A stretch of 38,560 bases of DNA, taken from IMG/VR virus record IMGVR_UViG_2529292890_000001, positions 1 to 38,560 of that record; one strand, given 5' to 3'. This document shows, in pieces, positions 3,643 through 38,560 of the stretch (positions within the stretch are counted from its first letter, which is position 1; the number at the start of each line of letters is the position of its first letter). This DNA comes from a virus (lineage: Duplodnaviria; Heunggongvirae; Uroviricota; Caudoviricetes). The translations under genes were made by a program, and so were the position numbers. The notes under the pieces are model-generated. The model did no database searches. It had not been told where the DNA came from and saw nothing but the letters and a program-made list of their open reading frames with translations.

Positions 3643-3657
3643 TAATCAGGAGGAGTC

Positions 3658-4416: not shown

Positions 4417-4899
4417 CTATCTGGTCAGGGTGTCGTACTGTTTTTCGCAGACTCTTCCGGCTTCGGCTGCCCGGTCAGCATACTCTGCCAGTTGTCTGTT
4501 TCTCTCGAGAGATTTGCTGAGCACGTCGGCAAGCAAAACTCCGGTGTCTGCGGCTGACGACCCAGCGCCGACAATGGCGTTATAGTGCCTGAGCTGCTCA
4601 CGGATGGCAACGAGCTGTTGCTGCAACCGGCCAGCGCGAGCGGCAGCATCAAGAGCATCATTGCGCGCCTGGTCGATCCTCTGCTGCGATTCACGTTCAT
4701 TGATCGCTTTCTCCTGTTCGTAGTGCTGACGAACTCTCTCATCTTCAGTTTTGCGGTCTTCTTTCGCCTGAGCATACCCGGCGTCGTACTGACGACTGCC
4801 GTGCACATTCCAGGCAACAACTCCTGATGTGGCAAGAACAGCAAGCATCGCCACGATAATCAAATGTTTCCAGTATGCTTTTACGAATGCCCAGATCAT
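4417..4899 (-). CDS. i-spanin (Rz-like)
   Basis: 160 aa; N-terminal TM helix then charged coiled-coil; start overlaps the endolysin stop (ATGA); contains an embedded +1-frame lipoprotein ORF. Confidence 0.75.
4425..4700 (-). CDS. o-spanin (Rz1-like lipoprotein) embedded in the Rz frame
   Basis: Internal ATG at 4700 preceded by AGGAG; signal peptide with lipobox LALAG-C; Pro-containing mature part; alternative starts at 4661 or 4658. Confidence 0.55.
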   Translation of the reverse strand: MNVNRSRGSTRRAMMLLMLPLALAGCSNSSLPSVSSSGTITPLSALGRQPQTPEFCLPTCSANLSRETDNWQSMLTGQPKPEESAKNSTTP

Positions 4900-5525
4900 A
4901 CAGCCAGCACCTTACTGGCAATGATGTATCGGGCGCGGCGGTCATCAATGCCGTTCCGGCCACCATTGATAATCAGAGTTACACGTGCAATATCGCCGGT
5001 ATACTTCATGCAGCCTTTGCTGGAGAAGAACCAGGCCGCGCTACGGGCCGCGTATTCGTCCTGTGCCAGCAGTTCAGGATTCTCCAGCAGGTCAACTTTC
5101 AGACCGTTTCCGCAGTCACGATAGTTATTCAAGCCGGTAATCTGGATAAGTCCGCGCCCACGGTAGTTCCAGCCATCACCAGGGGCATTGTTCCCCATGC
5201 GTTTGCTGTACACCAGATTGGCGATAGCGCGCTGTCGCTCAAGTGGTAATGCTGCTTCACCAGCACGGCGACCCAGTGCATTAGCCTGCCCCTGGGTGAG
5301 ACGCCCAGCCCGAACGAAGTTAGCCAGTCCGGTGACACTGTAGTTGAAATTTTCCTGCAACCGGGTGAAGCCCCCAGACTCATGCCCGACCTGAGCAATA
5401 AACATTGCCTGATCTTCGGGTTTGCTGATTCCAAACTCTTTCATCGCAGAAGTTATATGCAAGAACCAGCGTTCGGCCAGCGCCTCGCTAATACCAGCAG
5501 CACGCTGGAATTGTTTAATCTCCAT
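4896..5525 (-). CDS. Endolysin, glycoside hydrolase family 19 (chitinase-like)
   Basis: 209 aa; motifs QVGHESGGF and [19 protein letters not shown] typical of GH19 phage endolysins. Confidence 0.8.
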
Positions 5526-5823
5526 GTTTAGACCTCGTTATTTTGAAAATTTGAACGACGTTACCGCGAGTTTTAAGAACCGCAGCAAGCATGACAGCGT
5601 TAATAATGACCTCAGATAAATCCACAGCCATTGGCGTACGTAACCAGATTGCATAGGCGACTCGAACAGGAATACTGGCCGCAGCAACAATCAGGAAATA
5701 AGCAAGCCATCCTCCCCACCTTCGGTGTTGAGAGCCGTTACGCCGGAATGTGACAACGCGAATTGCTATGCCAGTGCAAATAACTGCATTGGTGATAAGC
5801 AAAAAAAACTCATGCGTTACCAT
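5515..5823 (-). CDS. Small multi-pass membrane protein in the lysis cassette (holin partner or antiholin candidate)
   Basis: 102 aa with 3 predicted hydrophobic helices; sits between the holin-like and endolysin genes with overlapping ends. Confidence 0.45.
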
Positions 5824-6214
5824 CGTCTTTTCTCCCCGGAATTAACTCGCGTGGATTATCGGAAAGGTGATAGAGCCATATACCAATACGCACAGCGACA
5901 ATTGCTGACACGAATGCGCCTGCAGAGAAAACAATCCCTTTTTCAAAAGAGTCCTGCGTGATGGTAGGGATCAGGCTAGCTATGCCGATAAGAATTGATG
6001 CTGCTGGTTTGTAAAAGAGAAGGCCGCAAAGAAAGCTGAGCATCGACATGAGCACCCGGCGACGGATGGGGTACTCTACTGCAGAGGTAACAAAAATTAC
6101 CGCCCCAGCCAAAGCCCCTAAAGCAACCTCCGGAGGGACACCTGCAATAACCGCAGCAAGAGAACCAAAACTAAGCAACTGATTTAATTGCTCACTTGTT
6201 ACTTGAGCAGACAT
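5810..6214 (-). CDS. Putative holin
   Basis: 134 aa with 3-4 hydrophobic helices and charged C terminus; strong RBS (AGGAGA); first gene of the cassette upstream of the endolysin. Confidence 0.55.
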   Translation of the reverse strand: MSAQVTSEQLNQLLSFGSLAAVIAGVPPEVALGALAGAVIFVTSAVEYPIRRRVLMSMLSFLCGLLFYKPAASILIGIASLIPTITQDSFEKGIVFSAGAFVSAIVAVRIGIWLYHLSDNPRELIPGRKDDGNA

Positions 6215-6485
6215 ACTTTCTCCTGTTTACTATCTATAAGCCAGTCAATTATTGATGACTAAACCCGCATAGTAAACCATATATGAATCATTATTGTTCC
6301 ATATCATATATCTCAATAAAAGTACTAATTATTTTACAGAACGAGCCAGCAGAGTGGGGGCAGTTGTACAGGAACCATAGACTTAATTTTGTATTTAATA
6401 ATGCTATGGTGTAATAAACCTGAACATGTATTTAAAATACGTACTGATTCATGATAGAATTCAAAGATAACTTTTCACCAACTCC

Positions 6486-9640: not shown

Positions 9641-9743
9641 GTTAAATCTCCAGATAGTCGCAGCACCCGTTGCGCCGCATATCTGGTCATTCTATTACCT
9701 AAAAAACCACATATGGATAGAAAGACTGTGAATACGAATAGAT

Positions 9744-9760
9744 ATTACCTTTCGGGTAAT
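9744..9760 (-). promoter_or_regulatory. Dispersed palindrome copy A: ATTACC-TTTCG-GGTAAT
   Basis: 17-bp inverted repeat about 100 bp upstream of the tailspike start; a half-site ATTACC (9694-9699) plus AACCACATATG (9705-9715) lies between. Confidence 0.55.
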
Positions 9761-9798
9761 TTGCAAAACGTGCTGGATAGCAAACAAATTATTTGCTA

Positions 9799-9814
9799 CT
9801 GTATAAATATACAG
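9799..9814. promoter_or_regulatory. LexA (SOS) box CTGT-N8-ACAG
   Basis: 20-mer tactgtataaatatacagtt (9797-9816) matches the LexA consensus taCTGTatatatatACAGta; overlaps a TATAAAT -10-like element about 25 bp upstream of the 9837 ATG. Confidence 0.7.
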
Positions 9815-9836
9815 TTATTGCATGGAGAATATTAAG

Positions 9837-10094
9837 ATGCAGCAGTATCACTATCCACTGGAAGACGGATTTACCGAAAGGATTCACACGCCGGGAGGCG
9901 TCAGGTCACTGGTGGAGGGATCGCACTTGATGAAATTACTCCGGGATCTCGATAAGGATGGATTTAATGTCGATGGCCCACTTGCCGAACTGACTGCACT
10001 GATTAACTACGTCACCAGCTCACAGATGTCTATGCAGGATCTGCAAACACATCTCGACTATTGTGCCGAACAATTACGAAAACAAACCCGGTAA
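9837..10094 (+). CDS. Small SOS-controlled protein, candidate antirepressor (paralog of the C-terminal domain of the BRO-N protein at 11245-11931)
   Basis: 85 aa from the ATG at 9837 (RBS GGAG; the track ORF starts at 9822); about 45 percent identical to the last ~65 residues of the BRO-N protein; LexA box immediately upstream. Confidence 0.6.
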   Translation: MQQYHYPLEDGFTERIHTPGGVRSLVEGSHLMKLLRDLDKDGFNVDGPLAELTALINYVTSSQMSMQDLQTHLDYCAEQLRKQTR

Positions 10095-10116: not shown

Positions 10117-10845
10117 CTATCGTTTCGCTTTGTGCTCATCCCAGCACGTTTTGCACCATGCCATTAAGCCGTCCGCATTTTGATTATTAGGGTAAAAGCT
10201 GGTTCGTTTTCTGCGGACATTACAAATTGGGCACCACTTCATATGGCGTGTATTCTTTGGGCCATCGAGACACCTTGCACACCACTTAGTCAATCCATCT
10301 GGATTTTTTGACGATTTCCTGAATTTTTCATATGGAAGGTTTATTCTGCATCGCAAGCACTGCTTGCTACCACTTGAAACTCTGTTAGCTGATTCTTCTT
10401 TTGGCGGCGATACAGAAGGTATTCTTGCTGGCTCTGATACTGCCTGAGGTGCTTTTTTAGATGACTGAGACGATATGTCATCACCAGGGAATCTTCCATG
10501 ATATGCCGGACGCGTTGACACTCCAGGTGGAAGCTCAGCTGTAAACGGCTTTGGCTGAATCAGTTGCCTCTCTTTTGCTAACTCCTGCTGTTTATAATAT
10601 GTCTGGATTACCGCACTATCATAAGCAGGAGGTGCGGAAATATTAGGCGCATTACCTCCAGTTTTTTGAAACTGAGTAGAGGTGTGTTCTATCACCTGTG
10701 TACGATTAATCGTTATCTCCCCATCTTCGGTCTTTATCGTTTTGTTATGATTAACGACCGTACGATCAGAGATCTTAGTCTTGTTCTGGTTGATAACGTA
10801 AATAATCACCGCAACCACACCAACAACTATCCAGAAAACTTCCAT
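10117..10845 (-). CDS. Membrane-anchored protein with C-terminal tandem CxxC zinc-ribbon repeats; function unknown
   Basis: 242 aa; N-terminal TM helix, S/T/P/Q-rich linker, C terminus with CLRC...WCARC...WCPIC...WCKTC; RBS GAGG; two palindromic motif copies upstream. Confidence 0.6.
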   Translation of the reverse strand: MEVFWIVVGVVAVIIYVINQNKTKISDRTVVNHNKTIKTEDGEITINRTQVIEHTSTQFQKTGGNAPNISAPPAYDSAVIQTYYKQQELAKERQLIQPKPFTAELPPGVSTRPAYHGRFPGDDISSQSSKKAPQAVSEPARIPSVSPPKEESANRVSSGSKQCLRCRINLPYEKFRKSSKNPDGLTKWCARCLDGPKNTRHMKWCPICNVRRKRTSFYPNNQNADGLMAWCKTCWDEHKAKR

Positions 10846-10881: not shown

Positions 10882-10957
10882 ATCTTGCTTTCAGGTGATC
10901 AAGCGTTAAACGCAATCAACCAAATACGGTTGATTTTTATATTTATCAGCGTTTATC

Positions 10958-10974
10958 ATTACCTTTGCGGTAAA
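10958..10974 (-). promoter_or_regulatory. Dispersed palindrome copy H: ATTACC-TTTGC-GGTAAA
   Basis: Second copy 93 bp from copy B in the same intergenic region. Confidence 0.5.
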
Positions 10975-11063
10975 TTTACATCGCACTCCTCTTGTGCCAT
11001 AGTAATCGAGCACTGGCAAAATCCAGTGCCGGGATTTGCACCCCGGATTACTAAAAGGCGCAT

Positions 11064-11086
11064 ACCACGCCAGACGTGGTTTTTTT
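11064..11086 (+). terminator. Candidate intrinsic terminator in the leader upstream of the BRO-N gene
   Basis: accacg-ccaga-cgtggt followed by T7. Confidence 0.4.
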
Positions 11087-11244
11087 ATGCGTATAGCACA
11101 GTCATGCCAGAATTATGGTGGGACGTGCAGGGGCACCGAAAGGTGCGCCGGGTCCTTTTAGCCGGTAGTGCAAACCCTGTACGTCTCACCACCAACGAGA
11201 TTTGCACCTCAGGTGGTGATTAACCATACTAAAAGGTGATTGCC

Positions 11245-11931
11245 ATGACTGCTAACGTAACCCCATCTGTTTTTCATTTTGAATCAGAAGCAACCATTCG
11301 AGCCATTGTTATTGATGGAAATCCTTGGTTTGTTGCCAAAGACGTTATTAAAGCTCTTCAACTGACAAACCCCACCATGTCAATCAAATCTCTTGATGAT
11401 GATGAAAGGGCTAAATTTAACTTAGGTCGTCAAGGCGAAACCAATATTATCAGCGAGTCAGGCCTCTACACACTGATCCTCCGCTGCCGCGATGCGGTGA
11501 CACCAGGCACTATCCCCTACCGCTTTCGTAAATGGGTTACAGGTGAGGTTCTTCCTCAGATCCGCCGCACCGGAAGTTACATTAAAAACTCGCTCCCGCA
11601 GGAAGAACGCATAAAGATGGTTGCCGACCAGGTAGCCAACGCCACAGCATCAGCAGTGATGCAGGCGATGAAGATAGAGAACAAAACCTACAGTGCCCCA
11701 CTGAAGCCCGGCTACCGCAGCCTGATTCACTCGCCGTCTGGTGTTCTCGGCCTGACGGAGAACTCACTGCTGATGAATCTGTTGAACCAGTTACAGGAAG
11801 ACGGGCACGACGTATCGGGCGCGGCGGCGGAGCTGACCACCATGTTCTGCTACATCGTCGGTGTGAGCAAATGCCTGCGTGATATCCAGACTCACGCGGA
11901 GTACATCAACGACAAAGCAGGATTCTTCTGA
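11245..11931 (+). CDS. BRO-N domain protein (antirepressor-like, two-domain)
   Basis: N-terminal FHFESEATIRAIVIDGNPWFVAKDVIKAL is a BRO-N signature; C-terminal domain paralogous to ORF 9837-10094; ATG at 11245 with RBS AAAGGTGA (track ORF uses GTG at 11236). Confidence 0.65.
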   Translation: MTANVTPSVFHFESEATIRAIVIDGNPWFVAKDVIKALQLTNPTMSIKSLDDDERAKFNLGRQGETNIISESGLYTLILRCRDAVTPGTIPYRFRKWVTGEVLPQIRRTGSYIKNSLPQEERIKMVADQVANATASAVMQAMKIENKTYSAPLKPGYRSLIHSPSGVLGLTENSLLMNLLNQLQEDGHDVSGAAAELTTMFCYIVGVSKCLRDIQTHAEYINDKAGFF

Positions 11932-13474: not shown

Positions 13475-15932
13475 CCTGTGGTCGCCACCAGTATGTCTGG
13501 TTAAACTCTTTCTTCGAACGTTGCTCCATTTTACGCAAATAGCCTGGTGAAAAATACTCCTGCATCTGGTTAAAGATCATGTGATCGAGAGCCGCCTTCA
13601 AGTACCAGAGATTCGCACCAGGCATCAAACCTTTCCCCAGCTTCACCAGATCACCACCAGTCTGCTCACTCTTCCCTTCCACAGCATTTAACGGTATGCC
13701 CTGAGCAATCTTCACTACGTCATCAACCAGACCAGCTACCGGGCCAAGCATCGACGCCAGCGCGCCGCTTCCGTACCTAGTGTGATCTGACAATAAAAAG
13801 TCACCGTAAAGGCCAAGACCACCACCTTTCAGTAGAGCACCAAGCCAGAATTTTGCGGCATCTTCTCCTGTCATCTCTCGAGGATTACGACCAGACGCAA
13901 GGTCGTTAAGTTGCTGCGACAAAGCGCCAAGAATGGTCGTACTGGCAATAAACGTCGCAATATATGCCGCACGCCCACCAGCAGACGGCATACCCATAGC
14001 GCGTGACCAGTGACGCATAACAACCGAGATAGGGAACGATTTAAACAGGAAAACACTTCTCGTTAATTCACCTTTCCATGTTCCACGCTGAATACCAGAA
14101 CCGGTTATCAGTTGCTCACGTGCTCCCGGTGTAATAACAGCCATATCAACTTCTTCAGTTACGGCACCGAGCAGTTTACGCATTGCCTCAAATTTCACGC
14201 GTTCAGGCTCACCAAGATGTTTAACTGCTGAATCAGGGATACGCATAATGCTTTCCGGTGTCAGCATCGTATTATTACCGTTCCCCCAGTCCTCCTGTTT
14301 CGCCAGCTTCCATACGCTCCAGTCTGTGTCAGTAATCCCTTTGCTTTTCAGGATACGAAAATCAGAGTCATCGAGGCTACGAAGGTCTGGTGTCCGTGAC
14401 ACTACTTCTCCCAGGCTTCCCATCATGGTTACGCCATAGGCGCGCTTGTGCGCATCTGACCATGCTGTAAGCCCACTGGCACGCATTACCGCCGTTGCCG
14501 CCCAACGAGACACTGACGGCCCCATATTATCCATCGCCCAGCGGTTAACGCTGCCAAGTAGAGATTCCATCGCCAGACCAGCGCGGCGCGCCCGCGCAAG
14601 TTCTGTACGGTTCGTTGGGTCCATAGCTTCAAGCTGGTTGCGGAATAACTGGTTCATTGGAAGGTTGGTAACCTTCGCAGACAGATACATGGTTCCAAGA
14701 TCAGAGAACGATGACAGCAACGCGGATCCGAGTCTGCTGGCAACCAGCCAGTTGCGGATATTGTCAGACCATCGCGCGATGTGCGGATTCGCTACAGGCT
14801 GTGTCTTTCCGGAAATAAAGTTGTACAGATTCTCTGTGTTGTTCGCCAGCCGCTCGACTTTACCGGTTTTACTCGGGTTAGCTGTTGCCGTTTCTGCCTT
14901 CACCTGATCAAGAAGAGAGCGGAAAACATGATCGGGGTTTGGGCCATATGTTTCCACCAGTGCAATATCTTTACTGATACCTTCCAGGTGACCGACCATG
15001 ATTTCCCATAGAGAGCGATCGCCATAAAGTTGCTGATATTGCAGATAGGAATCTGCATCTTTGAAATGTATCTGTCGTGATGCATTACCACGGTTAGCAC
15101 GTGCGCCGGAAATTCGCATTCCGGTATCAGTAAGCTTATTCAGCCCACCAGTAGCGATCGTGTTATAAGCCTCTCCAAGAAATGAAGACAACTCGGCATC
15201 GTTCATCAGTTGTCCATCGGCTCGGATATAATATTTGCGATCCAGCCTACCTATAACATCGCTAACCCACTTATCCTTTGATACTGCCCCAACCTTTTCC
15301 ATAGAATGATGTTGAGGGATCCCCCAGTTTTCGAGATAGCCAATGTCCCCACCAGCATCATTAAACCGGCGGCGCAGCAGCTCTGTAACTTCTCTCCACG
15401 CCTTAGCACCGTTTCTTGCTTTAGCATTGCCAGTAGTTTGCCCCCGCATTTCATATACCAGGTCACGTACGCCCGCTTCATCTTCAAACAGACCAAAAAA
15501 GCGAGGATCAACTGCTTCGAATGCCTCCTGCAATTGACTCAATGCATAATCACGGGTGGCTTTTGTTCTGGATTCAACAGAGAGGAAATTAGATTTACCG
15601 TCTGCATTAAAAGCTATAGTACGGTTAAGAGCGCCAAGTTTCCCATCAGCCCCTTGATAGCTATTGATAAATTTATCCAATCTCTGACGCGCGGCTATAG
15701 TGAGAGCCACACGACGTTTCTTTAATGCCGCTTCTCGCTGTAATTCTTCAGATGCCAATTGTGCTGCTCGATATAGCCGCTCTGATTCGGAAAGTTGTCG
15801 CCACGACATAGGGTCATCACGAGCAATGGAGCGCATATTTCGATAAATGCGGTCTTCAATGTTCTGTATTTCTCGCGCCGTTAACATGCGCTGCGCCGCC
15901 TGCTGAACCGCTTGTATACATTCCTGTCTCAT
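13458..15932 (-). CDS. Large internal virion / DNA-ejection protein
   Basis: 824 aa; last of a run of large genes after the tail genes, where podoviruses encode ejection/core proteins; RBS GAGAGG. Confidence 0.5.
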   Translation of the reverse strand: MRQECIQAVQQAAQRMLTAREIQNIEDRIYRNMRSIARDDPMSWRQLSESERLYRAAQLASEELQREAALKKRRVALTIAARQRLDKFINSYQGADGKLGALNRTIAFNADGKSNFLSVESRTKATRDYALSQLQEAFEAVDPRFFGLFEDEAGVRDLVYEMRGQTTGNAKARNGAKAWREVTELLRRRFNDAGGDIGYLENWGIPQHHSMEKVGAVSKDKWVSDVIGRLDRKYYIRADGQLMNDAELSSFLGEAYNTIATGGLNKLTDTGMRISGARANRGNASRQIHFKDADSYLQYQQLYGDRSLWEIMVGHLEGISKDIALVETYGPNPDHVFRSLLDQVKAETATANPSKTGKVERLANNTENLYNFISGKTQPVANPHIARWSDNIRNWLVASRLGSALLSSFSDLGTMYLSAKVTNLPMNQLFRNQLEAMDPTNRTELARARRAGLAMESLLGSVNRWAMDNMGPSVSRWAATAVMRASGLTAWSDAHKRAYGVTMMGSLGEVVSRTPDLRSLDDSDFRILKSKGITDTDWSVWKLAKQEDWGNGNNTMLTPESIMRIPDSAVKHLGEPERVKFEAMRKLLGAVTEEVDMAVITPGAREQLITGSGIQRGTWKGELTRSVFLFKSFPISVVMRHWSRAMGMPSAGGRAAYIATFIASTTILGALSQQLNDLASGRNPREMTGEDAAKFWLGALLKGGGLGLYGDFLLSDHTRYGSGALASMLGPVAGLVDDVVKIAQGIPLNAVEGKSEQTGGDLVKLGKGLMPGANLWYLKAALDHMIFNQMQEYFSPGYLRKMEQRSKKEFNQTYWWRPQDVTPQ

Positions 15933-29436: not shown

Positions 29437-29525
29437 ATCAATGACTCCGTACGCAATTAAATTATTACCAATTTAACCACATATGATTTATTTATCGTAG
29501 AAGGTTGACATTTAACGCGTTAATT

Positions 29526-29542
29526 ATTACCTTTCAGGTAAC
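29526..29542 (-). promoter_or_regulatory. Dispersed palindrome copy C: ATTACC-TTTCA-GGTAAC
   Basis: About 90 bp upstream of the small ORF/portal operon; half-site ATTACC (29464-29469) plus AACCACATATG (29475-29485) nearby; a TTGACA hexamer at 29505-29510. Confidence 0.55.
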
Positions 29543-29863: not shown

Positions 29864-29940
29864 GTGGCATTAGCTCAGTTGGACAGAGCAACCGCCTTCT
29901 AAGCGGTTGGTCGCAGGTTCGAATCCTGCATGCCACGCCA
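29864..29940 (+). tRNA. tRNA-Arg (anticodon UCU), phage-borne
   Basis: 77 nt; acceptor GTGGCAT/ATGCCAC; D arm GCTC/GAGC; anticodon stem accgc/gcggt with loop CTTCTAA; T arm gcagg-TTCGAAT-cctgc; discriminator G plus CCA. Confidence 0.85.
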
Positions 29941-30138: not shown

Positions 30139-30513
30139 ATGAACGACCAGCAAATCGAAAAAGAAATCGTTGAGAAAGGCAAAACCGCTCCGCGTGTAAC
30201 ACCCGAGAAAATTGAAGGCCTCATTTGCAGTGAGCATTTTTTCACTGCTGCGCAGGGTGACCACCAGGCTAAAGAAGATGACCTTATTTATAATCCGGAG
30301 CCTTATGTCGAAGCCACCCCTGATGCTCTGCACCTTCTCACTTTCTGCGTATTGGTACTGAAGAATGGCTTCACCGTTACCGGAGAGAGTGCCTGTGCAA
30401 GCCCGGAAAACTTTGATGCAGAAATTGGTCGGAAGATTGCCCGGCAGAATGCTGTAAACAAAATCTGGATGCTCGAAGGTTACTTGCTGAAGCAGAAGTT
30501 AAGCGAGCAATAA
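30139..30513 (+). CDS. Phage Gp49/Gp66-like protein (function unknown)
   Basis: 124 aa; recalled family pattern (KGKTAPRVTPEKIEGLI...TVTGESAC...); RBS AAGGTGAG; plus strand against the minus-strand structural operon. Confidence 0.45.
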   Translation: MNDQQIEKEIVEKGKTAPRVTPEKIEGLICSEHFFTAAQGDHQAKEDDLIYNPEPYVEATPDALHLLTFCVLVLKNGFTVTGESACASPENFDAEIGRKIARQNAVNKIWMLEGYLLKQKLSEQ

Positions 30514-30603: not shown

Positions 30604-32079
30604 TTAAGCATAAGGGTCATAATCCGTTATGGCCCTTCCCTGCTGGCTTTGCTGTCCAGGTATATTTATGCGTTTCGAGACCGGGAAAGCAAACGTCAGC
30701 AGTAGCGCATCGCCTTTACCAGGAGAACGCCCAAGTCGCTCTTTGATATCTTCCTTCGGTTCGATAACGATTTTACCGTCCACTCGAACTTTGTACTCTG
30801 CCGCCGACAGGTCGTCTGCTGTTTCCTGGTCATCCAGCATGCCGCCCAGCCTCAGCCATGTCTTGCATGAATTGAACATCTCCCCACGCTTGTTGAGCAT
30901 CTGCGGGTCAGTAGACGCGCCACCGAACGGAACAAGTTGCCATGTACGACCCCAGCCGTCACCGATTGACTTCAAACCGGTTCCGTAACCGAAGTCGATG
31001 AACACCGCGTCAGCCTGATACTGGTCTTCAAAGTCAGCGATACGCTTCGCCATAATCAGATCGTCGGTAGTCTTGTTGCCAGTCCACAGCACCTTACTGT
31101 GTAGCCCCTGCCGCAGGTATATCACAGCGTCATCAACGCCGGAGTATGCCGGGTCAACGCCGATTATCACCGGAGCATGTGCAACCTGCGCAGCGGTTAC
31201 CACCCGTTTCATTGCCTCGTCAGTAAGACCGGTAGGGATAAACTGCAATTCAGATGCATCAGGGAATATGCCACGCACACGGATTTTAACGAAGTCGCTG
31301 TCTTCCCCGTAGTCATCAACCCATTTCTGCAACTGCTGTTTGTTAGTGCCTTCCACCGTCCGGCTGTCAATCTGCGCAGTTTTCCAGCGGTGTTTATATT
31401 TGCGGAAACATTCGCGAAAACGCCCGGTGTTACGTGTAGGGTTTCCGAACGCCACCCAGATAATCTCAGTGTCTTCGTCCGTAAGCGCACCCTCGGCAAC
31501 TTCCCACACCAGATCCGCAATGTTCGACGCTTCATCAAACACCACGATGATGCGTTTGCGCTCGTTGTGTAGTCCGGCGAATGCCTCGGTGTTGTGCTCA
31601 GACCAGGGTATTGCGTCAGCCCGCCACCGCTTGTCGTGCCCTAGGTCATTGCTGTACATCGCGGTAGCGGTACAGGTAAACCAGTCTTTCGTGATAGCAA
31701 GGTTCGACCACTTGATAATTTCCGGCCAGGTCTTCGTTCGTAGCTGGTTGTCGGTGTTGGCGGTCACCACGACCTTACAATCCTCGCAAGTGGACATGCC
31801 CCAGTTGATCAGCATTGAGATGAATGCGGATTTACCAATACCGTGACCAGAAGCGCGTGCCAGCATAAGCGGCTGATAGCGCGTCTCTGGATTCTGCAGG
31901 TGATCACGTATCTCTCGGAACGCATCAGCCTGCCACTGACGTGGGCCGGTGGCATGTGCCAGTTCAGTCCCCTCTTCCCCCCATGGGAACGCATAGAGGG
32001 CATAGCCAAGCGGATCGTGAGTGAACCCTGCAATATCCTCGATTAACTGCTCTTCAGGAGATAACGCTGTATCTGTCAC
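30604..32079 (-). CDS. Terminase large subunit
   Basis: 491 aa; Walker A-like SGHGIGKS; acidic catalytic residues in the N-terminal ATPase and C-terminal nuclease parts; follows TerS with overlap. Confidence 0.85.
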   Translation of the reverse strand: MTDTALSPEEQLIEDIAGFTHDPLGYALYAFPWGEEGTELAHATGPRQWQADAFREIRDHLQNPETRYQPLMLARASGHGIGKSAFISMLINWGMSTCEDCKVVVTANTDNQLRTKTWPEIIKWSNLAITKDWFTCTATAMYSNDLGHDKRWRADAIPWSEHNTEAFAGLHNERKRIIVVFDEASNIADLVWEVAEGALTDEDTEIIWVAFGNPTRNTGRFRECFRKYKHRWKTAQIDSRTVEGTNKQQLQKWVDDYGEDSDFVKIRVRGIFPDASELQFIPTGLTDEAMKRVVTAAQVAHAPVIIGVDPAYSGVDDAVIYLRQGLHSKVLWTGNKTTDDLIMAKRIADFEDQYQADAVFIDFGYGTGLKSIGDGWGRTWQLVPFGGASTDPQMLNKRGEMFNSCKTWLRLGGMLDDQETADDLSAAEYKVRVDGKIVIEPKEDIKERLGRSPGKGDALLLTFAFPVSKRINIPGQQSQQGRAITDYDPYA

Positions 32080-32672
32080 TGATTGCCATCCTGACGTTCT
32101 TTCAGTCTCTTCCTGGCTGCCGCTATGCGATCAGCAATTGTCACATTCACATTAACATCCAGGCGTTCTTTGAATGCGTTGACGTCGACGTGCTTACCAA
32201 TCAGTTCGAGGTTCTTCACCTTGTCAGGCCATTTAATTTTTTTGAGGATTGTCTCTATCGAATCCTCGTTCATGTTCATGATGGTCGATGACAGATCAAA
32301 GCCACTAAGCGTAGTGCGCCAGATTTTCGGCCACTCGCGGATTGGCTTAAGGCTCCCATCGTCGTTGAGGATGTCGATCACGTCCATCTGGTCGATCTCC
32401 ACCAGGCGCATGAGAACGTAATCAGCACTGACGCGCATTCGTTTGTTGCGCTCTTCCATCAGCTCGGCAATCCGTTTTTGAATGCGTTCATCGCGCATCA
32501 TGAGACTGGCTTTAACTGCCGCTGTATTTGGGGAGAATCCTGCGTTAATCGCAGCCTGAGTCTGGTTTTCAGGCGTTTGGATGTATGACTGGCAATAAGC
32601 CTCCTGCATTGCTGTTAGTGGCTTAAATTGCGTTGATTTGCGTTTATAGGTTTTAGGTTCAGCAGGCATCAT
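32076..32672 (-). CDS. Terminase small subunit
   Basis: HTH-like KPLTAMQEAYCQSYIQTPENQTQAAINAGFS; directly upstream of and overlapping TerL; start taken at ATG 32672 (track ORF extends on a TTG to 32750). Confidence 0.7.
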   Translation of the reverse strand: MMPAEPKTYKRKSTQFKPLTAMQEAYCQSYIQTPENQTQAAINAGFSPNTAAVKASLMMRDERIQKRIAELMEERNKRMRVSADYVLMRLVEIDQMDVIDILNDDGSLKPIREWPKIWRTTLSGFDLSSTIMNMNEDSIETILKKIKWPDKVKNLELIGKHVDVNAFKERLDVNVNVTIADRIAAARKRLKERQDGNQ

Positions 32673-32681
32673 AACCACCGT

Positions 32682-32711
32682 GGTAATAGTTACCGTTGTG
32701 GTAATAGTACC
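32682..32711. repeat. Tandem direct repeat GGTAATAGT(T)ACC x2 just upstream of terS
   Basis: ggtaatagttacc (32682-32694) and ggtaatagtacc (32700-32711); each is an everted GGTAA/TTACC palindrome sharing the half-site of the dispersed motif. Confidence 0.5.
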
Positions 32712-32746
32712 ATGCAAAATAAAGCCGCCATAGTTGGCGGCAGTAT

Positions 32747-32980
32747 TCAAAGTCCATCAAATTCATCGTAAAAACTCTCGTCAAGATACCCTTCCCATTT
32801 ACCGCGAATGAAAATTACATCCTCGCCGCAAGGGTGCTGACTGTCGATAACTATATCCCTCCTGGCGCAACCATACTTATGCATGAGAAATTTAACCTCT
32901 TTCGGAAAATTTGCTGAGTTATCTCTCATATCTTCAAGGTCGTAGCGTATTTTTGGCATAACACCTTCGTGACATGTCAC
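32747..32980 (-). CDS. Hypothetical protein
   Basis: 77-aa ORF upstream of terS; no recognisable motif. Confidence 0.35.
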   Translation of the reverse strand: MTCHEGVMPKIRYDLEDMRDNSANFPKEVKFLMHKYGCARRDIVIDSQHPCGEDVIFIRGKWEGYLDESFYDEFDGL

Positions 32981-33318
32981 ACTATTAATTTCGTTTCATG
33001 CCAGCCTTTAGTCACCCAGCATTGCGAGTCACCATTACACGGGCATGAATTAACGGGAACTCTCTCGCCGCACTTACCGCAAAGTTTTCTGCTGATCGAT
33101 TTTATACGCCCGCGCACACGTGCATCATCCTGGCGGATCAGCAGCGCGATGTACTCGGCCATTTCATAGGGATCGTGACCAGGGCGCCGGGCGGCGCAGT
33201 TCCGCGCCAGCATTTCCTGCTCCTGCTTATCCAGCACCAGTTCAATTTTGCGCTCACCGGCGGCGGACTGCCGAGCGCGCTGCGCGGCTTTGCGCTCTGC
33301 TGCTGATTTAGCCATCAA
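32977..33318 (-). CDS. Basic protein with C-terminal Cys-rich zinc-finger-like motif (candidate late-gene regulator)
   Basis: 113 aa; Arg/Lys/Ala-rich N terminus and C-terminal CGKCGERVPVNSCPCNGDSQC; lies where lambdoid phages place Q. Confidence 0.4.
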   Translation of the reverse strand: MMAKSAAERKAAQRARQSAAGERKIELVLDKQEQEMLARNCAARRPGHDPYEMAEYIALLIRQDDARVRGRIKSISRKLCGKCGERVPVNSCPCNGDSQCWVTKGWHETKLIV

Positions 33319-33589
33319 TATTCACCTTTATAGCGAACACCTTTACCGGTTTATCGCCGAAGTGCGGATGTGTGATTGTCTTGATTTCATATCCGTCATA
33401 CGGGACGTCAATTCTGCGGCTGGAATCGTCGCGCTTCGGATATCCCTTTGTGATAATCAGGCGGTCATACTCGCGGAACATAATTCGCTTATTCCAGTAG
33501 TCATTACACAGGCGATACTCTTCCGTTTTCTCTCCGCGAATCATGGCATCGAAGTATTCACCTTTAACGGCAAGTTGCAGGTTAGCCAC
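33308..33589 (-). CDS. ASCH/PUA-like small protein
   Basis: 93 aa; pattern LAVKGEYFDAMIRGEKTEEYR ... KVFAIKV resembles the ASCH/DUF3850 fold; tentative. Confidence 0.35.
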   Translation of the reverse strand: MANLQLAVKGEYFDAMIRGEKTEEYRLCNDYWNKRIMFREYDRLIITKGYPKRDDSSRRIDVPYDGYEIKTITHPHFGDKPVKVFAIKVNIDG

Positions 33590-33869
33590 GACCTTCCTCC
33601 TTTGGCTTGTGAATTTGTATCGTCATGCCGCTTTGAGTGGTGACTACAACGACAGAACCAGGCTGAAGACTGTTAAGATTGAATGCTTCGTAAAACGAAG
33701 CCAAGGCCAGCGCTTTTTTATTCTTTCGGTTCCACCAACGCCATCCATTGCTACAGGCTACACTGACAATCCACTGTCCACTCCTGTAAGCCATATAAAA
33801 CCAGATGAGCAAAACCTGAATGAATGCTATCCAGTCAATAATCGTATATTTCGCGAAGGAGACCATCAA
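33582..33869 (-). CDS. Small membrane protein
   Basis: 95 aa with two hydrophobic segments. Confidence 0.35.
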   Translation of the reverse strand: MMVSFAKYTIIDWIAFIQVLLIWFYMAYRSGQWIVSVACSNGWRWWNRKNKKALALASFYEAFNLNSLQPGSVVVVTTQSGMTIQIHKPKEEGRG

Positions 33870-34615
33870 TTAACCTCCTGCGGCGGTTCCGGTAGAGGCA
33901 TCCAGTACAAGGCGTTCCCTAACCACGATAAAGTGCCGTCGCTCAACTCCACGTATTCCCCTTGTACCTGTCCTGCCATATACTCGCCGTGCTTTGAATA
34001 AATTAAAATCCAATCATCTTGAGCGGGCATTCGCTCACTACAGCTTATCCAACCATCCGGAGTTACCGGATAGTTGCCAGCCTGAACAGTAGGCATATCA
34101 GGACCTTTGCGAATCGCCCTGGCAAGATCGATTGGGTCGTCGTACAACCAGTCACCTGTTTGCGGATGATTGGCTTCTGCCAATTGTGCAGCCCACTCCA
34201 GGCCGTCTTTGTGTCCTTGCAGATAGTCCAGCGGTAACTCATCACTATTACTTACAGGTTCGGCCTGAAGCATGGCGGCGCGGCAGGCGTTCCAGCCTCT
34301 CACCTCTGCAATAGCGGCAACAGCATCGACCGCGTACATTTTAAGAGGGTTAGGCATTGGTTTTTCTTCAGGTACTACTGGCACTGGAGGGGCGGCATAA
34401 ACAGGAATAACGTCCGATTGCTCTTTATTGCTTTCATCCGTCAAAGCCCAGAATAATTTCCCGGCCGGATGTTTGAAAATATAAGCAACTGGATCTGCTT
34501 CCAGCGATGCCAGTGCAATTTCATAAGCCCGGCGTTCAATATTGTCTCGAACGTCCAGGCTGCTGATACGCTCTTTGATTTCTTTAATCAGTTCTTTGTC
34601 GGTAAAAGTAGTCAT
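33866..34615 (-). CDS. DUF551-domain phage protein
   Basis: 249 aa; C-terminal GWISCSERMPAQDDWILIY...YWMPLPEPP matches the DUF551 pattern common in enterobacterial prophage early regions. Confidence 0.5.
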   Translation of the reverse strand: MTTFTDKELIKEIKERISSLDVRDNIERRAYEIALASLEADPVAYIFKHPAGKLFWALTDESNKEQSDVIPVYAAPPVPVVPEEKPMPNPLKMYAVDAVAAIAEVRGWNACRAAMLQAEPVSNSDELPLDYLQGHKDGLEWAAQLAEANHPQTGDWLYDDPIDLARAIRKGPDMPTVQAGNYPVTPDGWISCSERMPAQDDWILIYSKHGEYMAGQVQGEYVELSDGTLSWLGNALYWMPLPEPPQEVN

Positions 34616-34618
34616 GTG

Positions 34619-34927
34619 TTAGTCCTCATCCACTTCAACGCCATCTTTCAGCGTGATGCCGTGCCAATCATCAGCCCAACTGGTTAGCCCTGGCGCATCA
34701 ATGCTAGGCATATAAACGCTTGCAGTGTGGTAGCCCTTATCGTTATCAATGCTGGCAACGTGCTCGCCGTTGTATGCGCTCAGCGTGTCCAGGACGCTAT
34801 AAAACTTTCCTCCGGCTGCCCTGAAATCCTTTACAGCCTTCACAAGGCGATTCCACGCTTTTTCCTGTTCTGGCGTCAGGTCGATTAATTCCTGCAAAGT
34901 TGCCATATCACTCTCCTTTGATGCCAA
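34619..34927 (-). CDS. Hypothetical acidic protein
   Basis: 102-aa ORF in the early/nin-like block. Confidence 0.35.
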   Translation of the reverse strand: MASKESDMATLQELIDLTPEQEKAWNRLVKAVKDFRAAGGKFYSVLDTLSAYNGEHVASIDNDKGYHTASVYMPSIDAPGLTSWADDWHGITLKDGVEVDED

Positions 34928-35564
34928 TGTTTACAGCCTGACAAGCCTCTTTGAGCACCCAGTCAACAGCGTCTTTCCATGCTCCGGTTTCGACTGGCGG
35001 ATTTTCACGCTTAACCTGTTCATAGAAGCGCACTGCTTTAACCAGTCCTTCCGGTACTACTGGCGATGGTTGTTTAGCTTCTAAATCAGCAATTCTGTCA
35101 ACCACGACATCTACGGCATCTGAAAAGCCGAACCAGTTACTCCACTCCGGCCTATCCCCGGTTGCTGCAAAGTACATATCAGCTAAAGCAGACTCAGCAT
35201 GGTCACGCTCATCGATGAGTTGCTCTTCGCTTTTCTCCAGTTCAGCAATACGCTTACTCCCATCCGAGATAACACCTTCGTAATACTCACGCTGCTCGTT
35301 GAGTTTTGATTTTGTCTCCTCAAGCTCAACTCTCAGCTTCCCTACCGTTAGCGCAATATCCTCGTTCTCCTGGTCGCGGCGTTTGATGTATTGCTGGTTT
35401 CTTTCCAGTTCATCCAGCAGTGCCAGCGCGATATCTGGCGAAAAGTGCTTCATAAAATCGTTAAGCGCATTAATTCGCTGATCGAAGGGCATTACAGGTG
35501 CTTCACCAGCAATTTTTGTTTTTTCAGCGATTTCACGAAGCTTTTGATAATCAATCTTGCTCAC
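34908..35564 (-). CDS. Ead/Ea22-like coiled-coil protein
   Basis: 218 aa; coiled-coil central region (…KLRVELEETKSKLNEQ…IAELEKSEEQL…) typical of Ea22-like prophage proteins. Confidence 0.4.
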   Translation of the reverse strand: MSKIDYQKLREIAEKTKIAGEAPVMPFDQRINALNDFMKHFSPDIALALLDELERNQQYIKRRDQENEDIALTVGKLRVELEETKSKLNEQREYYEGVISDGSKRIAELEKSEEQLIDERDHAESALADMYFAATGDRPEWSNWFGFSDAVDVVVDRIADLEAKQPSPVVPEGLVKAVRFYEQVKRENPPVETGAWKDAVDWVLKEACQAVNIGIKGE

Positions 35565-36079
35565 TGGTTGCCTCCTTTGCGAAGCTGGGCAGCAAAGTCA
35601 ACTAACCACTCAGTCATTTCAACCTTCCCTACCAGGTCTGAACCAGGGTGCATACAGCAATCACTCTGCGCCGCTTTGAAATCCTTATACTCATATTCTT
35701 GGGCCACCAGATTTTTTGCAGCTTCTATAGCAGCATCCACCCCCTGCGCCCGCACTTCAGACAGGAAAGCATCGGTGGCTGGCATATTTCCTGTTGCCTT
35801 CATTGCCTCCAAAATAACCAGAACGCCATCTCGCCCAATCTCCTCGCAGATAACCTCGGTGCTGTCGCCAACAACATCGCAAAATGCCTGAACTGCTTTA
35901 CGAGCCAGCGCATTCTCCGCAGCCAGCGCATTAGCACGCACCAGTTGCACTTCCAGTTGCGTTGCCAAATAGCTGATCAGCTTTGCCACACTGCGCATAT
36001 CAACGGCACCACATTCTGCTTTCAGTTCCGAAGCCATCTCATGCCCGGCGGCAACTAACCCTTTGATATTACTTTCCAT
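35561..36079 (-). CDS. Hypothetical protein
   Basis: 172-aa ORF, coupled to the downstream gene. Confidence 0.35.
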   Translation of the reverse strand: MESNIKGLVAAGHEMASELKAECGAVDMRSVAKLISYLATQLEVQLVRANALAAENALARKAVQAFCDVVGDSTEVICEEIGRDGVLVILEAMKATGNMPATDAFLSEVRAQGVDAAIEAAKNLVAQEYEYKDFKAAQSDCCMHPGSDLVGKVEMTEWLVDFAAQLRKGGNQ

Positions 36080-36140
36080 CTTTACCCTCGCTTATCCACA
36101 TAACTTATTGATTACATTGATAACTAAAAAGATCGTCGAT

Positions 36141-36488
36141 TCAGAACTCTTCGATGTTCCAGCCACCACCTGCTTTCTTTGGCTTAACCGTTACCCCGAT
36201 GATTCGGAACGGATACTGATCTGCGGCGACTTTGGTTTTCACTCTGGCGTCATCGGTCCAGAATCCCCCTTTCACTTCGTGCAGTTCCATCTCGCCGGTG
36301 GCGAGCATCACAGCAAAATCTGGCGTATAGAACGTGTTGTCAGCTAACCGCAGCTTGATACCCTCAAATCGATACCAGACGATTTCTCCTGCACGTTTAC
36401 GCAGCTCAAGGTGCTGGCAATACGCAGATTCTGTTTTGTTCATCTGGCCTGTTTTGAGTCGACCAAGAGCCTGCATCTGTTTTCTCAT
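36141..36488 (-). CDS. DUF1064-family phage protein (putative nuclease fold)
   Basis: 115 aa; pattern …LELRKRAGEIVWYRFEGIKLRL…YTPDFAV…KTKVAADQYPF… resembles DUF1064; first gene after the replication block. Confidence 0.5.
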   Translation of the reverse strand: MRKQMQALGRLKTGQMNKTESAYCQHLELRKRAGEIVWYRFEGIKLRLADNTFYTPDFAVMLATGEMELHEVKGGFWTDDARVKTKVAADQYPFRIIGVTVKPKKAGGGWNIEEF

Positions 36489-36490
36489 GA

Positions 36491-36507
36491 TTTACCCCTT
36501 AGGTAAT
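36491..36507 (-). promoter_or_regulatory. Dispersed palindrome copy D: TTTACC-CCTTA-GGTAAT
   Basis: Abuts the DUF1064 start codon; followed by ACCACATAAG (36512-36521). Confidence 0.5.
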
Positions 36508-36552
36508 TAAAAACCACATAAGACACGAAATCAATAGATTTTAGAATATTTT

Positions 36553-36569
36553 ATTACCTCTAAGGTAAT
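36553..36569 (-). promoter_or_regulatory. Dispersed palindrome copy E: ATTACC-TCTAA-GGTAAT
   Basis: Between the P-like stop and the DUF1064 start, 46 bp from copy D. Confidence 0.55.
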
Positions 36570-36605
36570 TATCGAGACGTAAAAAAATGCGCTATCGCGC
36601 TGGTA

Positions 36606-37388
36606 TTACTTGATAAATCCTGACGCCTTTCCCCGCCTGTATTCCTCCATCAGCCACTGCGCCGGTGTTATTCCCCCAAGGGTGGCGGCGTTAGGCATGC
36701 ACCCGAAACTTCGCCCTGGTGGATGGTAAACGTCTCTCCCTGTGTCCGGAGGCGTACTCATGGGTTCTGGCTTTGCCTGTATGCTGATCACCGGATCGGG
36801 TATCTGCTGTCCGGAAGCCACCTTTTTCGCCCAATCATCGAGCAGCCTGCGCGCGTGTTTCTCAACCTCAATCTCGCTAAGCTGGCGCTGATACATTGCA
36901 CGGCGGGTATCACATACGACCCAGTACATAACCGGATGTCGCCACGGGAATCTTTCGGGACCACCAGGATATAAACTTTTTTCCTTGCTGTACCGGTGAA
37001 ACTCCGCCATCACATCGTCAATGGTGACGCCAAGAACCATCTTGCTGTCTTTACACCACTTGATGAATTGCCCTGGCGACGGCCAGAACGGAGACTCACT
37101 GGCGCGGGCGTGGCGCATACCAGCGTTAACCTGTTCCATTGTTGTGATCCCATTCTCCAGAAACGCAAGCATCCATTGTTTTCGAAATTCGTTTAGCTTT
37201 CCTTGCTCGCTGATAGCAGCGATGCTGCCTGGAAATGCAGCCTGTAACTGGACAAACATTTCGTTGAAAATTCTTGCAACCTGCTCCTTCTTTGCCCTTT
37301 CATCGTCAGCAGAAGCAACCGCCGTCGAGTGGTCATGCCCACCACGAAAGCGATCGTACTCATTAAGAAGTTCTGGAGTTGATTTCAT
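36606..37388 (-). CDS. Replication protein P-like (helicase loader)
   Basis: Segment …RKQWMLAFLENGITTMEQVNAGMRHARASESPFWPSPGQFIKWC… closely resembles lambda P; ATG at 37388 preceded by GAGGTG. Confidence 0.75.
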   Translation of the reverse strand: MKSTPELLNEYDRFRGGHDHSTAVASADDERAKKEQVARIFNEMFVQLQAAFPGSIAAISEQGKLNEFRKQWMLAFLENGITTMEQVNAGMRHARASESPFWPSPGQFIKWCKDSKMVLGVTIDDVMAEFHRYSKEKSLYPGGPERFPWRHPVMYWVVCDTRRAMYQRQLSEIEVEKHARRLLDDWAKKVASGQQIPDPVISIQAKPEPMSTPPDTGRDVYHPPGRSFGCMPNAATLGGITPAQWLMEEYRRGKASGFIK

Positions 37389-38196
37389 CCCACACCTCAT
37401 CTATCCAGTCAGTGTTATGCCAGTCAAGGCTCTTTCTGACTTCACCTGATTTCTGTCTACAGAACTGGATGCGCCTTGCCAGCTTCTGCTCCCACTGTGC
37501 CTGATGGTATGCCTTACCCTCAGCCATCCAGTAAATTCTGAACTCTGCAAGTTCCTGTGCCGTTGGCAGACTGTCCAGGTAGATTCCCTGCAATGAGCTT
37601 TTCCGAAGAAAGTCATCTGATGGCTGCCATTGTTCATGCATGACAAATTTGCCTAATTGCCCTGGCCCACCAGGAGGAACAAAGTTATTCATCACGGCGT
37701 TGTTTGCGCCGGGGTCATGAGGCACAGAATCCCCGGTTTTTGTCCTGCTCTCCCTCTCTTGGTTAAATGACTGGTTATATGACTGGTTCTGGATCCCGTT
37801 TTTGGGATCATTCAACATCCCGTTTTTGGGATCATTCAACATCCCGTTTTTGGGTATATTCCCGTTTTCGGTAACATTACCGTTTTCGGGTTCATTGCCC
37901 CCCTCCCGGTTGCCTTTAATGTTCCCGTTTTTGGTTATATTAAGAGAGAAAACCCGCACTCTTTTTGTCGCTCCCTTTCTCTCTCCGGTATCTGAAATAA
38001 GCCCCATTTTCATGAGCGATATAAGCCCGGCCTGCACGGTTTTTTTATTCAGGCAAGTGTCTTTAACGAGGCGTTCTATGCTGGGGTAGCAGAGGTTATA
38101 TTCATCGGCTCTGTCAGCCATCGAGAGCAGTATGAGCTTTAATGATGAGCTACCTGGATCTGTCTCCCAGGCCCAATCTGTTGCATGTCTGCTCAT
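37363..38196 (-). CDS. Replication initiator O-like protein (iteron-binding)
   Basis: 277 aa; N-terminal HTH-like domain; NGN/PKNGML peptide repeats encoded by the internal iterons; RBS GGAGA; directly upstream of the P-like gene. Confidence 0.7.
   Translation of the reverse strand: MSRHATDWAWETDPGSSSLKLILLSMADRADEYNLCYPSIERLVKDTCLNKKTVQAGLISLMKMGLISDTGERKGATKRVRVFSLNITKNGNIKGNREGGNEPENGNVTENGNIPKNGMLNDPKNGMLNDPKNGIQNQSYNQSFNQERESRTKTGDSVPHDPGANNAVMNNFVPPGGPGQLGKFVMHEQWQPSDDFLRKSSLQGIYLDSLPTAQELAEFRIYWMAEGKAYHQAQWEQKLARRIQFCRQKSGEVRKSLDWHNTDWIDEVWDEINSRTS
37794..37940. repeat. Origin-like iteron array inside the O-like gene
   Basis: Six direct repeats of TCCCGTTTT(T/C)GG at 37794, 37818, 37842, 37860, 37878 and 37923 (24- and 18-bp periodicity), followed by an A/T-rich stretch, as in lambda ori within O. 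Confidence 0.7.
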
Positions 38197-38508: not shown

Positions 38509-38529
38509 AATAGATATGAAAAGAAACCC

Positions 38530-38560
<31 letters not shown>

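Follow-up and report, generated by a model that had tools for sequence, protein, structure and literature searches.

A portable ribbon-helix-helix-like protein encoded upstream of terS in a Q-less Uetakevirus prophage is probably not the late-gene switch

The DNA analysed here in its entirety, referred to as the window (38,560 nt), is a prophage of the phiV10/epsilon15 type (Uetakevirus) with its late genes on the minus strand (Table 1). In megablast comparisons, phiV10-like podophages (PAS61, ZX5, the O157 typing phages and phiV10 itself) match positions 32000-37500 at 93-95% identity, and the layout of the window's ORFs agrees with that of phiV10 gene for gene. The same prophage is carried by E. 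coli FDAARGOS_1303, where it adjoins guaA. After the O-like and P-like genes, the nin-like operon runs from a DUF1064 gene through Eae-like, Ea22-like, DUF551, DUF4752 and ASCH-like genes to an ORF of 112 aa and another of 77 aa. The late genes are ordered terS, terL, portal, other structural genes, tail spike and lysis genes. The lytic genome is split into terminator-bounded units, the late ones being terS-terL, portal and head, tail spike, and lysis. An earlier interpretation made from the sequence alone (the sequence-only reading) had described this order, with the holins, endolysin and spanin placed after the tail spike, and the description is accurate. The layout is not peculiar to this element. 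It is the standard phiV10/epsilon15 arrangement: the Q-less, lysis-last order is genuine, but it is a known design shared by the genus.

Table 1. Positions of genes and putative control elements in the window
Feature	Position	Strand	Remarks
O-like gene	38196-37363	-	
P-like gene	37400-36606	-	
Control region of the DUF1064 operon	36491..36569	.	putative Rep operators 36553-36569 and 36491-36507, 62 bp apart
CATAT box, DUF1064 control region	36512-36522		CTTATGTGGTT
DUF1064 gene	36141..36488	-	Holliday-junction-resolvase-like; first in nin-like operon
ASCH-like gene, 93 aa	33308..33589	-	phrog_625; just upstream of the 112-aa gene; phiV10 p54 annotated as ASCH domain protein
112-aa basic protein gene (predicted RHH fold, cysteine cluster)	32977..33315 (ATG start)	-	alternative TTG start at 33318
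77-aa ORF (from GTG; PGAP: 70 aa)	32747..32980	-	phrog_1541; hypothetical protein in the FDAARGOS_1303 prophage
Intrinsic terminator closing the DUF1064-to-p55 operon	32724..32741	-	7-bp stem, 6 G-C pairs, tail TTTATTTT
Candidate extended -10 of terS promoter	32704..32712	-	TGGTACTAT; read from sequence
Two tandem 17-bp putative Rep operators (1 and 2)	32689-32705 and 32671-32687	.	equivalent epsilon15 site annotated as repressor-binding
terS (Terminase_2)	32076..32672	-	ATG 32672 start as in epsilon15 and Tyrion annotation
Putative Rep operator before portal (head) unit	29526..29542	.	
CATAT box, portal unit	29475-29485		CATATGTGGTT
Portal gene	29215-27536	-	
Putative Rep operator before tail-spike gene	9744..9760	.	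epsilon15 equivalent annotated as repressor-binding
CATAT box, tail-spike unit	9705-9715		CATATGTGGTT
Tail-spike gene	9640-6521	-	
CATAT box, lysis cassette	6275..6285	-	CATATATGGTT
Lysis cassette	4417..6214	-	two holins, endolysin, Rz-like spanin; distal end of late region
Host MASE1/EAL gene	27-2270		

The 112-aa protein, counted from its ATG, is basic (pI 9.47; 22 K+R against 14 D+E) and has cysteines at positions 40, 79, 82, 91, 93 and 99. Its gene shares the first 8 nt, ATG included, with the end of the ASCH-like gene that precedes it, and the two genes are probably translationally coupled. This is a real gene and not a chance ORF, since it has 775 homologues at E<=1e-3, with hundreds of members in some clusters, and the family comprises 146 clusters at 50% identity. 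The family extends across enterobacterial and Vibrio phages, and all 775 homologues are unnamed or 'hypothetical'. The match to PHROG 536 covers almost the whole protein (E 2.6e-53; residues 1-111 against profile positions 2-114 of 115) and brings in phiV10 p55, epsilon15 gp49 and N15 gp46, which are 86.6%, 80.4% and 35% identical to it over their full length and share its cysteine pattern. The two Uetakevirus orthologues also occupy the same genomic position. The label 'transcriptional regulator' attached to PHROG 536 is an annotation only, and PGAP names the same protein hypothetical. We found no published experiment on any member of PHROG 536, and a literature search on the function of N15 gp46 returned nothing. 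Across an alignment of 53 diverse family members, R13, C79, C82 and C99 are invariant and a fourth cysteine always lies between C82 and C99 (the 91/93 region), which gives a pattern C-x2-C...C...C that is compatible with one zinc site. A basic N-terminal arm (ERKAAQRARQ) is conserved as well.

An AlphaFold2 model built with a diverse alignment (pLDDT 89.9) begins with a helix (5-18) and an extended segment (22-28), continues with helices 30-42 and 52-74 and a cysteine-rich loop, and ends in a helix at 100-108. The predicted architecture is a ribbon-helix-helix (RHH) fold, preceded by a basic N-terminal arm and followed at the C-terminus by a cysteine cluster (C79, C82, C91/C93 and C99) that probably binds zinc. 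The modelled beta-strand followed by two helices can be superposed on known RHH domains. At the level of curated families there was no match, to RHH or to any other family, in Pfam (E<=0.1) or NCBIfam (0.01), and Foldseek searches of the PDB and BFVD returned one RHH-like match and a fragment from the same family, but nothing more. In known RHH proteins the subunits pair and a two-stranded beta-ribbon reads the DNA major groove. The outward-facing residues of the modelled strand include a conserved glutamate, E25, which is unusual for a base-reading ribbon, so that any DNA reading might rely on the basic N-terminal helix instead. No candidate operator travels with the gene across its loci. The sequence-only reading had also suggested a comparison with Ogr/Delta-type activators (PF04606); no Pfam match was obtained, and hhalign against verified Ogr_Delta gave a probability of 0.25%. 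Likewise, the Q families PF06530, PF06323 and PF03589 gave no Pfam match to the protein at E<=0.1.

The junction with terS is more elaborate than the sequence-only reading had supposed. The protein it placed directly upstream of terS is indeed basic and does carry the cysteine cluster, but it is not adjacent: the 77-aa ORF, a terminator and two palindromes intervene. PhiV10 has no gene at the position of the 77-aa ORF, which looks like a moron-type insert, and the junction takes other inserts elsewhere, namely a 109-aa ORF in BUCT711 and a reverse transcriptase gene plus a 109-aa ORF in a Klebsiella prophage. The terminator is also kept in phiV10, SPN1S, epsilon15 and Tyrion. We consider it most likely that terS starts at ATG 32672 and not at TTG 32750; an ORF from the TTG would traverse the terminator and both operators. 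Before terS, the motif TGnTAYTAT is conserved in eight genomes from four host genera and in each overlaps operator 1, the final two bases of the extended -10 being the first two of the operator in the window. The terS promoter is thus probably of the extended -10 sigma-70 type and overlaps operator 1, and operator 2 overlaps the terS Shine-Dalgarno sequence and ATG. In the Q-type arrangement a promoter is followed by a terminator that is overridden, whereas here the terminator precedes the candidate promoter.

The claim that no Q-like antiterminator is present has held up. There was no match to a Q family among the window ORFs between P and terS or among the small early ORFs of phiV10, and no antiterminator is annotated in the complete prophage of E. 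coli FDAARGOS_1303, which beyond the window adds only Rep, Cro-like, RecT, YqaJ, AlpA-like, PerC-like, methylase and integrase genes. The 112-aa protein is probably not the missing switch, because close copies of it occur in phages that have a late-gene switch of their own. In Salmonella lambdoid prophages a copy with 82.1% identity sits midway through the nin region, and a PF06530 Q gene follows 1.3 kb downstream of it (order: repressor, cro, O, DnaB, ..., homologue, Rem, DUF1367, YbcO, Q, holin, endolysin, terS). A Q-type protein would be expected to act as sole late regulator, whereas these close homologues share their operon with a distinct Q gene that lies downstream of them. The lambda-like phage Chlobot has an intact, 77.7%-identical copy between exo and xis, together with N-like and Q (PF06530) genes; in N15, gp46 is encoded downstream of the Q protein gp40 (PF06323, E 1e-110); and in a Yersinia P2-like phage the homologue gp13 follows gpA while an Ogr_Delta gene (E 4e-21) is at its usual place after gpD. 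The same kind of search detected the true Q proteins (N15, 1e-110; Chlobot, 3.5e-53; Salmonella prophage, 1.3e-8), but returned nothing for the homologues of the 112-aa protein. Members of the family are thus found together with dedicated late regulators of three classes.

From these habitats, which comprise nin regions, the exo-xis region, the right arm of N15 and a P2 early operon, the family behaves as portable accessory cargo of early operons that is mobile among unrelated temperate phages. The Salmonella lambdoid copy is nearer to the 112-aa protein than is epsilon15 gp49. In every Uetakevirus examined the gene is the last or nearly the last early gene, among neighbours that are mosaic. 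Such conserved placement would also fit an important phage-specific role.

We turn now to the palindrome ATTACC-N5-GGTAAT, which the sequence-only reading had correctly identified as dispersed: the window holds nine copies at no more than one mismatch, against 0.04 expected. There are nine copies in phiV10, eight perfect ones in SPN1S and five in Tyrion. In five genomes (phiV10, SPN1S, epsilon15, Tyrion and the FDAARGOS_1303 prophage) it is found on both sides of rep, with two or three sites downstream, ahead of the early-left operon, and a further one to four in the interval from rep to the cro-like gene; the window's own lineage has its sites at 14278, 14989 and 15051 around rep at 14349-14933 (L026 coordinates). 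The epsilon15 RefSeq record labels the same sequences 'protein_bind: repressor', at terS, gp3, the tail fibre, OL (three sites) and the resolvase gene. Rep itself is only 42% identical between phiV10 and SPN1S or epsilon15, but the putative recognition helix of its N-terminal helix-turn-helix (NLVNRW) is identical, which fits an unchanged operator. The palindrome, this helix and the beta-strand of p55 are all invariant across the genus. Operator pairs with 62-bp spacing recur in seven genomes, a distance that fits a tetrameric repressor, and the Rep of SPC32H has been reported to be a tetramer (PMC9986798). Loci obtained in two single-protein scans of viral contigs served for motif scanning alone. 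Neither this palindrome nor the second box described below is present in the whole of Chlobot or within 6-9 kb on either side of the other non-Uetakevirus homologues, which indicates that the palindrome travels with Rep and not with the 112-aa protein. Taken together, the palindrome is best regarded as the putative operator of the prophage repressor Rep, as previously annotated in epsilon15, and we presume that Rep occupies the copies in the window.

A second conserved element, CATATRNGGTT, accompanies these operators. Its strict form (CATAT[AG]NGG[TA]T) occurs three to nine times in five of the six Uetakevirus genomes and once in BUCT711, compared with 0.1-0.3 matches in shuffled sequence. 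Every match falls between genes and points the same way as the gene that follows. The box stands 30-42 bp past an operator, in most cases with 4-7 bp between it and a half-site. The box precedes the portal, tail-spike, lysis, p42-O-P and DUF1064 units, and OL in Tyrion; it is absent before terS. At the lysis unit a good -10 (TATAAT or TATGAT) is found 7 nt past the box, with no conserved -35. Readings of the box as an IHF, CRP or sigma-54 site gave poor matches by eye.

It is conceivable that the 112-aa protein was co-opted in the Uetakeviruses as an activator that binds this box in the place of a -35 element, in promoters with no conserved -35, before the portal, tail-spike and lysis genes. 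The enrichment of the box, its intergenic and co-directional placement and the arrangement at the lysis unit would all be in keeping with such a role, for which the right arm offers no other activator candidate. The palindromic core of the box, CATATATG, would suit one RHH dimer, the site for which is an 8-10 bp palindrome (as in MetJ and Arc-type operators). However, the box also stands before early units (p42-O-P, OL in Tyrion and the protein's own DUF1064 operon) and so is not late-specific, and terS does without it. Moreover, the box was not carried along with the protein into lambdoid phages, and box and protein are both invariant across the genus. Weighing these points, we regard co-option at the box as improbable. 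A fuller scheme is a shade less probable again: Uetakeviruses, which have no Q, Ogr or Mor-type regulator, would have recruited the protein as late activator at the portal, tail-spike and lysis boxes (in the -35 place), while Rep tetramers bridging the 62-bp-spaced operators shut the same promoters in the lysogen.

A different possibility is that a TraR/DksA-like module, made up of the C-terminal helix, the zinc finger and the final helix, acts on host RNA polymerase. Such an action would need no specific DNA site, and would therefore explain the free movement of the gene between unrelated phages. A profile search of PDB sequences gave weak matches to YbiI (E 0.029) and TraR (E 0.038) over residues 50-111; they cover the long helix, a finger of the shared form C-x2-C-G-x2-[IL]-P and the last helix, and hhalign against TraR returned a probability of 46% over 57 columns. 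TraR-like genes are moreover typical cargo of exo-xis or nin regions, and Chlobot has one 1.5 kb away from its copy of the 112-aa gene. Against this, there is no match to Pfam zf-dskA_traR (PF01258) and no structural support. The finger is also differently built (CxxC-x8-CxC-x5-C, compared with CxxC-x17-CxxC in DksA/TraR, the difference being in the spacing of the second cysteine pair). The acidic DxxDxA tip of DksA/TraR is missing; the aligned segment, HDPYEMAEY, lies in the RHH loop and second helix. We judge it quite unlikely that the protein works in this way.

The proposal made by the sequence-only reading, that the 112-aa protein is a late regulator which switches late transcription through the dispersed ATTACC-N5-GGTAAT sites, is very unlikely. 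It draws on the position of the gene, since in all the Uetakeviruses examined no conserved early gene separates it from the late region, on the predicted DNA-binding fold and on the palindromes ahead of late units. Yet the same palindromes make up OL and OR on either side of rep and stand ahead of the early-left, replication and nin-like units, the epsilon15 record marks them as repressor sites, and homologues with 78-82% identity reside in Q-bearing lambdoid phages that do not have the palindrome. One part of the proposal does survive. Because the late units are preceded by a protein-binding palindrome, control at the promoter level by a sequence-specific protein is plausible, as opposed to Q-type antitermination; what falls is the 112-aa protein as that regulator or as the palindrome binder, given homologues that lie beside Q or Ogr and away from any palindrome. 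Least probable is that the arginine-rich N-terminus (AERKAAQRARQ, with R8 nearly invariant and R13 invariant) is a lambda N-like RNA-binding motif of a processive antiterminator, which would be loaded at candidate leaders that carry the conserved box and would let transcription pass the terminators between the units: close homologues occur in phages already equipped with N and Q, Rfam turned up no antitermination RNA of the nut or put kind, the box is not followed by any conserved hairpin, and the protein's own operon, which has to be transcribed before the protein can be made, has the same box.

We favour a model, with a probability of roughly 0.6, in which the 112-aa protein is an accessory DNA-binding RHH protein and the late genes are gated by Rep. 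According to this model the protein would be a small product of the lytic phase, made from the last place in a delayed-early nin-like operon (DUF1064 to p55) which would have its own Rep-controlled promoter region. It would most likely be an accessory regulator that binds DNA as a dimer, with a target independent of the promoters of its own phage; a host target is possible, given the cassette-like movement of the gene between unrelated temperate phages. Each late unit lies behind its own terminator, and in the window every unit except lysis begins with one or two putative Rep operators at no more than one mismatch. For the lysis unit the window has no operator within that limit, whereas in relatives ATCACC-N5-GGTAAT is present some 36 nt ahead of the box. 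Late expression would be gated by direct, multi-site repression from a tetrameric Rep of the SPC32H type and released on Rep inactivation. With operators before late units, direct repression by Rep would be the simplest gate, and a dedicated late antiterminator would be unneeded. In the close relative ZX5, overexpression of Rep cuts holin and endolysin mRNA by 99.97-99.99% (PMC9782041), a result which fits direct Rep control but does not prove it. Canonical -35/-10 elements can be fitted around the operators of the DUF1064 unit, where a sigma-70-like promoter (TCGATA-16-TAAAAT) encloses the first operator, and at terS in the form of the extended -10. No consistent canonical fit was found at the portal, tail-spike and lysis units.

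For annotation, these considerations mean that no late regulator should be deduced from a position as 'last early gene before terS'. The label of the 112-aa gene should stay 'RHH/zinc-cluster protein, function unknown', as portable cargo of the nin/exo-xis type, and 'Rep operator' is the appropriate annotation for the 17-bp palindrome. Two questions are raised by our results. The first is how late-gene timing is set in a Q-less temperate podophage with a shared repressor operator and a second box, and the second is what role is played by a widespread family that combines an RHH fold with a cysteine cluster and coexists with three late-regulator classes.

The resemblance of the 112-aa protein to lambda Q and P2 Ogr/Delta extends only to its being a small, cysteine-containing protein encoded by the last early gene before the late genes; the finger of Ogr/Delta is C-x2-C-x22-C-x4-C, whereas that of the 112-aa protein is C-x2-C-x8-C-x-C-x5-C. 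Compared with RHH regulators such as P22 Arc, Mnt, AmrZ, CopG and the N-domain of TraM, it has an extra, conserved N-terminal helix and a C-terminal cysteine-cluster module, both absent from those proteins, and, unlike them, it places a conserved glutamate on the presumed DNA-facing strand. With TraR, DksA and YbiI it has in common the succession of a helix, C-x2-C-G-x2-[IL]-P, a cysteine and a helix, and genes of both kinds are common cargo of phage accessory regions. The window's palindrome, on the other hand, corresponds to the Rep system of SPC32H and epsilon15: it is the same sequence as the annotated sites of epsilon15, flanks rep and precedes distant units too. Dispersed repressor sites are known from mycobacteriophage L5 (stoperators) and from phiC31 (conserved inverted repeats). 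In contrast to the stoperators of L5, which lie within transcribed regions, the putative Rep operators of the window are found at the starts of units, next to terminators.

Paired copies of the Rep operator, the 17-bp palindrome ATTACC-N5-GGTAAT, are separated by exactly 62 bp, start to start, in seven genomes, and this constant spacing suggests that the tetrameric repressor bridges or loops between the two sites. A second conserved box, CATAT[AG]NGG[TA]T, whose palindromic core is CATATATG, is also found between genes: strict matches number three to nine per genome in five of six Uetakevirus genomes and one in phage BUCT711, with 0.1-0.3 expected. Without exception, this box stands 5' of the first gene in a terminator-bounded transcription unit, and it is not confined to late units. 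The distance from Rep operator to box is 30-42 bp, and a half-site usually lies 4-7 bp from the box.

The longest terS ORF begins at TTG 32750 and spans the terminator as well as both operators. PGAP and the phiV10 record both place the start at this codon; the annotations of epsilon15 and Tyrion use the ATG equivalent to 32672, which is likely to be the terS start and has GGTGG just before it. Between the homolog of p55 (the phiV10 ortholog of the basic cysteine-rich protein) and terS, a related Klebsiella prophage (L029) carries an inserted reverse transcriptase which may be a defence-type cargo gene. The same junction also has an insert in the window, an ORF of 77 aa, and in BUCT711, one of 109 aa.

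Features of the window and of compared genomes
Feature	Genome	Position	Strand	Remarks
62-bp Rep operator pair	window	36553/36491
62-bp Rep operator pair	L026 (the window's own lineage)	14989/15051
62-bp Rep operator pair	phiV10	31952/32014
62-bp Rep operator pairs (two)	SPN1S	33629/33691, 35995/36057
62-bp Rep operator pairs (two)	epsilon15	32554/32616, 35906/35968
62-bp Rep operator pair	BUCT711	4209/4271
62-bp Rep operator pair	L025	3903/3965
CATAT[AG]NGG[TA]T box	window	29475-29485, 9705-9715, 6275-6285	minus	motif match
Variants of this box	window	36512-36522, 36094-36104
Reverse transcriptase	L029	6436-7920	opposite	494 aa, RVT_1
tRNA-Arg	window	29864-29940	+ (opposite late genes)	anticodon TCT; between terL and portal unit
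Gp49/Sf6 gp66-family gene	window	30139-30513	+	adjoins tRNA-Arg
Terminator-like hairpin	window	38527-38544	minus	run of 13 C, 5 G, then TTTCTTTT
242-aa ORF, phrog_6762	window	10117-10845	minus	between antirepressor module and tail spike
DNA methyltransferase gene (phrog_1277) and phrog_1094 gene	window	3124-4197	both +
LexA box, near-perfect	window	9797-9816		TACTGTATAAATATACAGTT; immediately 5' of ORF 9822-10094 (+)
isrK Hfq-binding RNA	window	11010-11086	+	Rfam, 67 bits
C4 antisense RNA	window	11111-11196	+	Rfam, 78 bits
Bro-N antirepressor gene	window	11236-11931	+	isrK and C4 RNAs immediately 5'

The terminator-like hairpin sits 3' of the position expected for a cro-like gene and contains a homopolymer run that could be prone to slippage, whereas relatives have an ordinary GC hairpin at the equivalent place. 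The phrog_6762 ORF, which phiV10 lacks, shows weak similarity in its C-terminal part to endonuclease VII and to Lar-type zinc ribbons. The phrog_1277/phrog_1094 pair has the host MASE1/EAL gene on one side and the prophage's spanin-side terminus on the other; it may be left over from some other element, or may represent cargo located at the end with the attachment site.

SPC32H reportedly encodes a small antirepressor under LexA control, and the LexA-box-preceded 90-aa gene of the window, which is divergent from the tail spike, occupies the same position. If this gene matches the SPC32H antirepressor, the prophage would have two such modules. The other comprises the isrK and C4 RNAs together with the Bro-N gene and is flanked by Rep operators at 10865, 10958 and 12003; a 112-aa ORF that overlaps both RNAs (10885-11223) is probably not a real gene. 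In its arrangement of RNAs and Bro-N gene, this module is like the immI-type antirepressor module of P1/P7.
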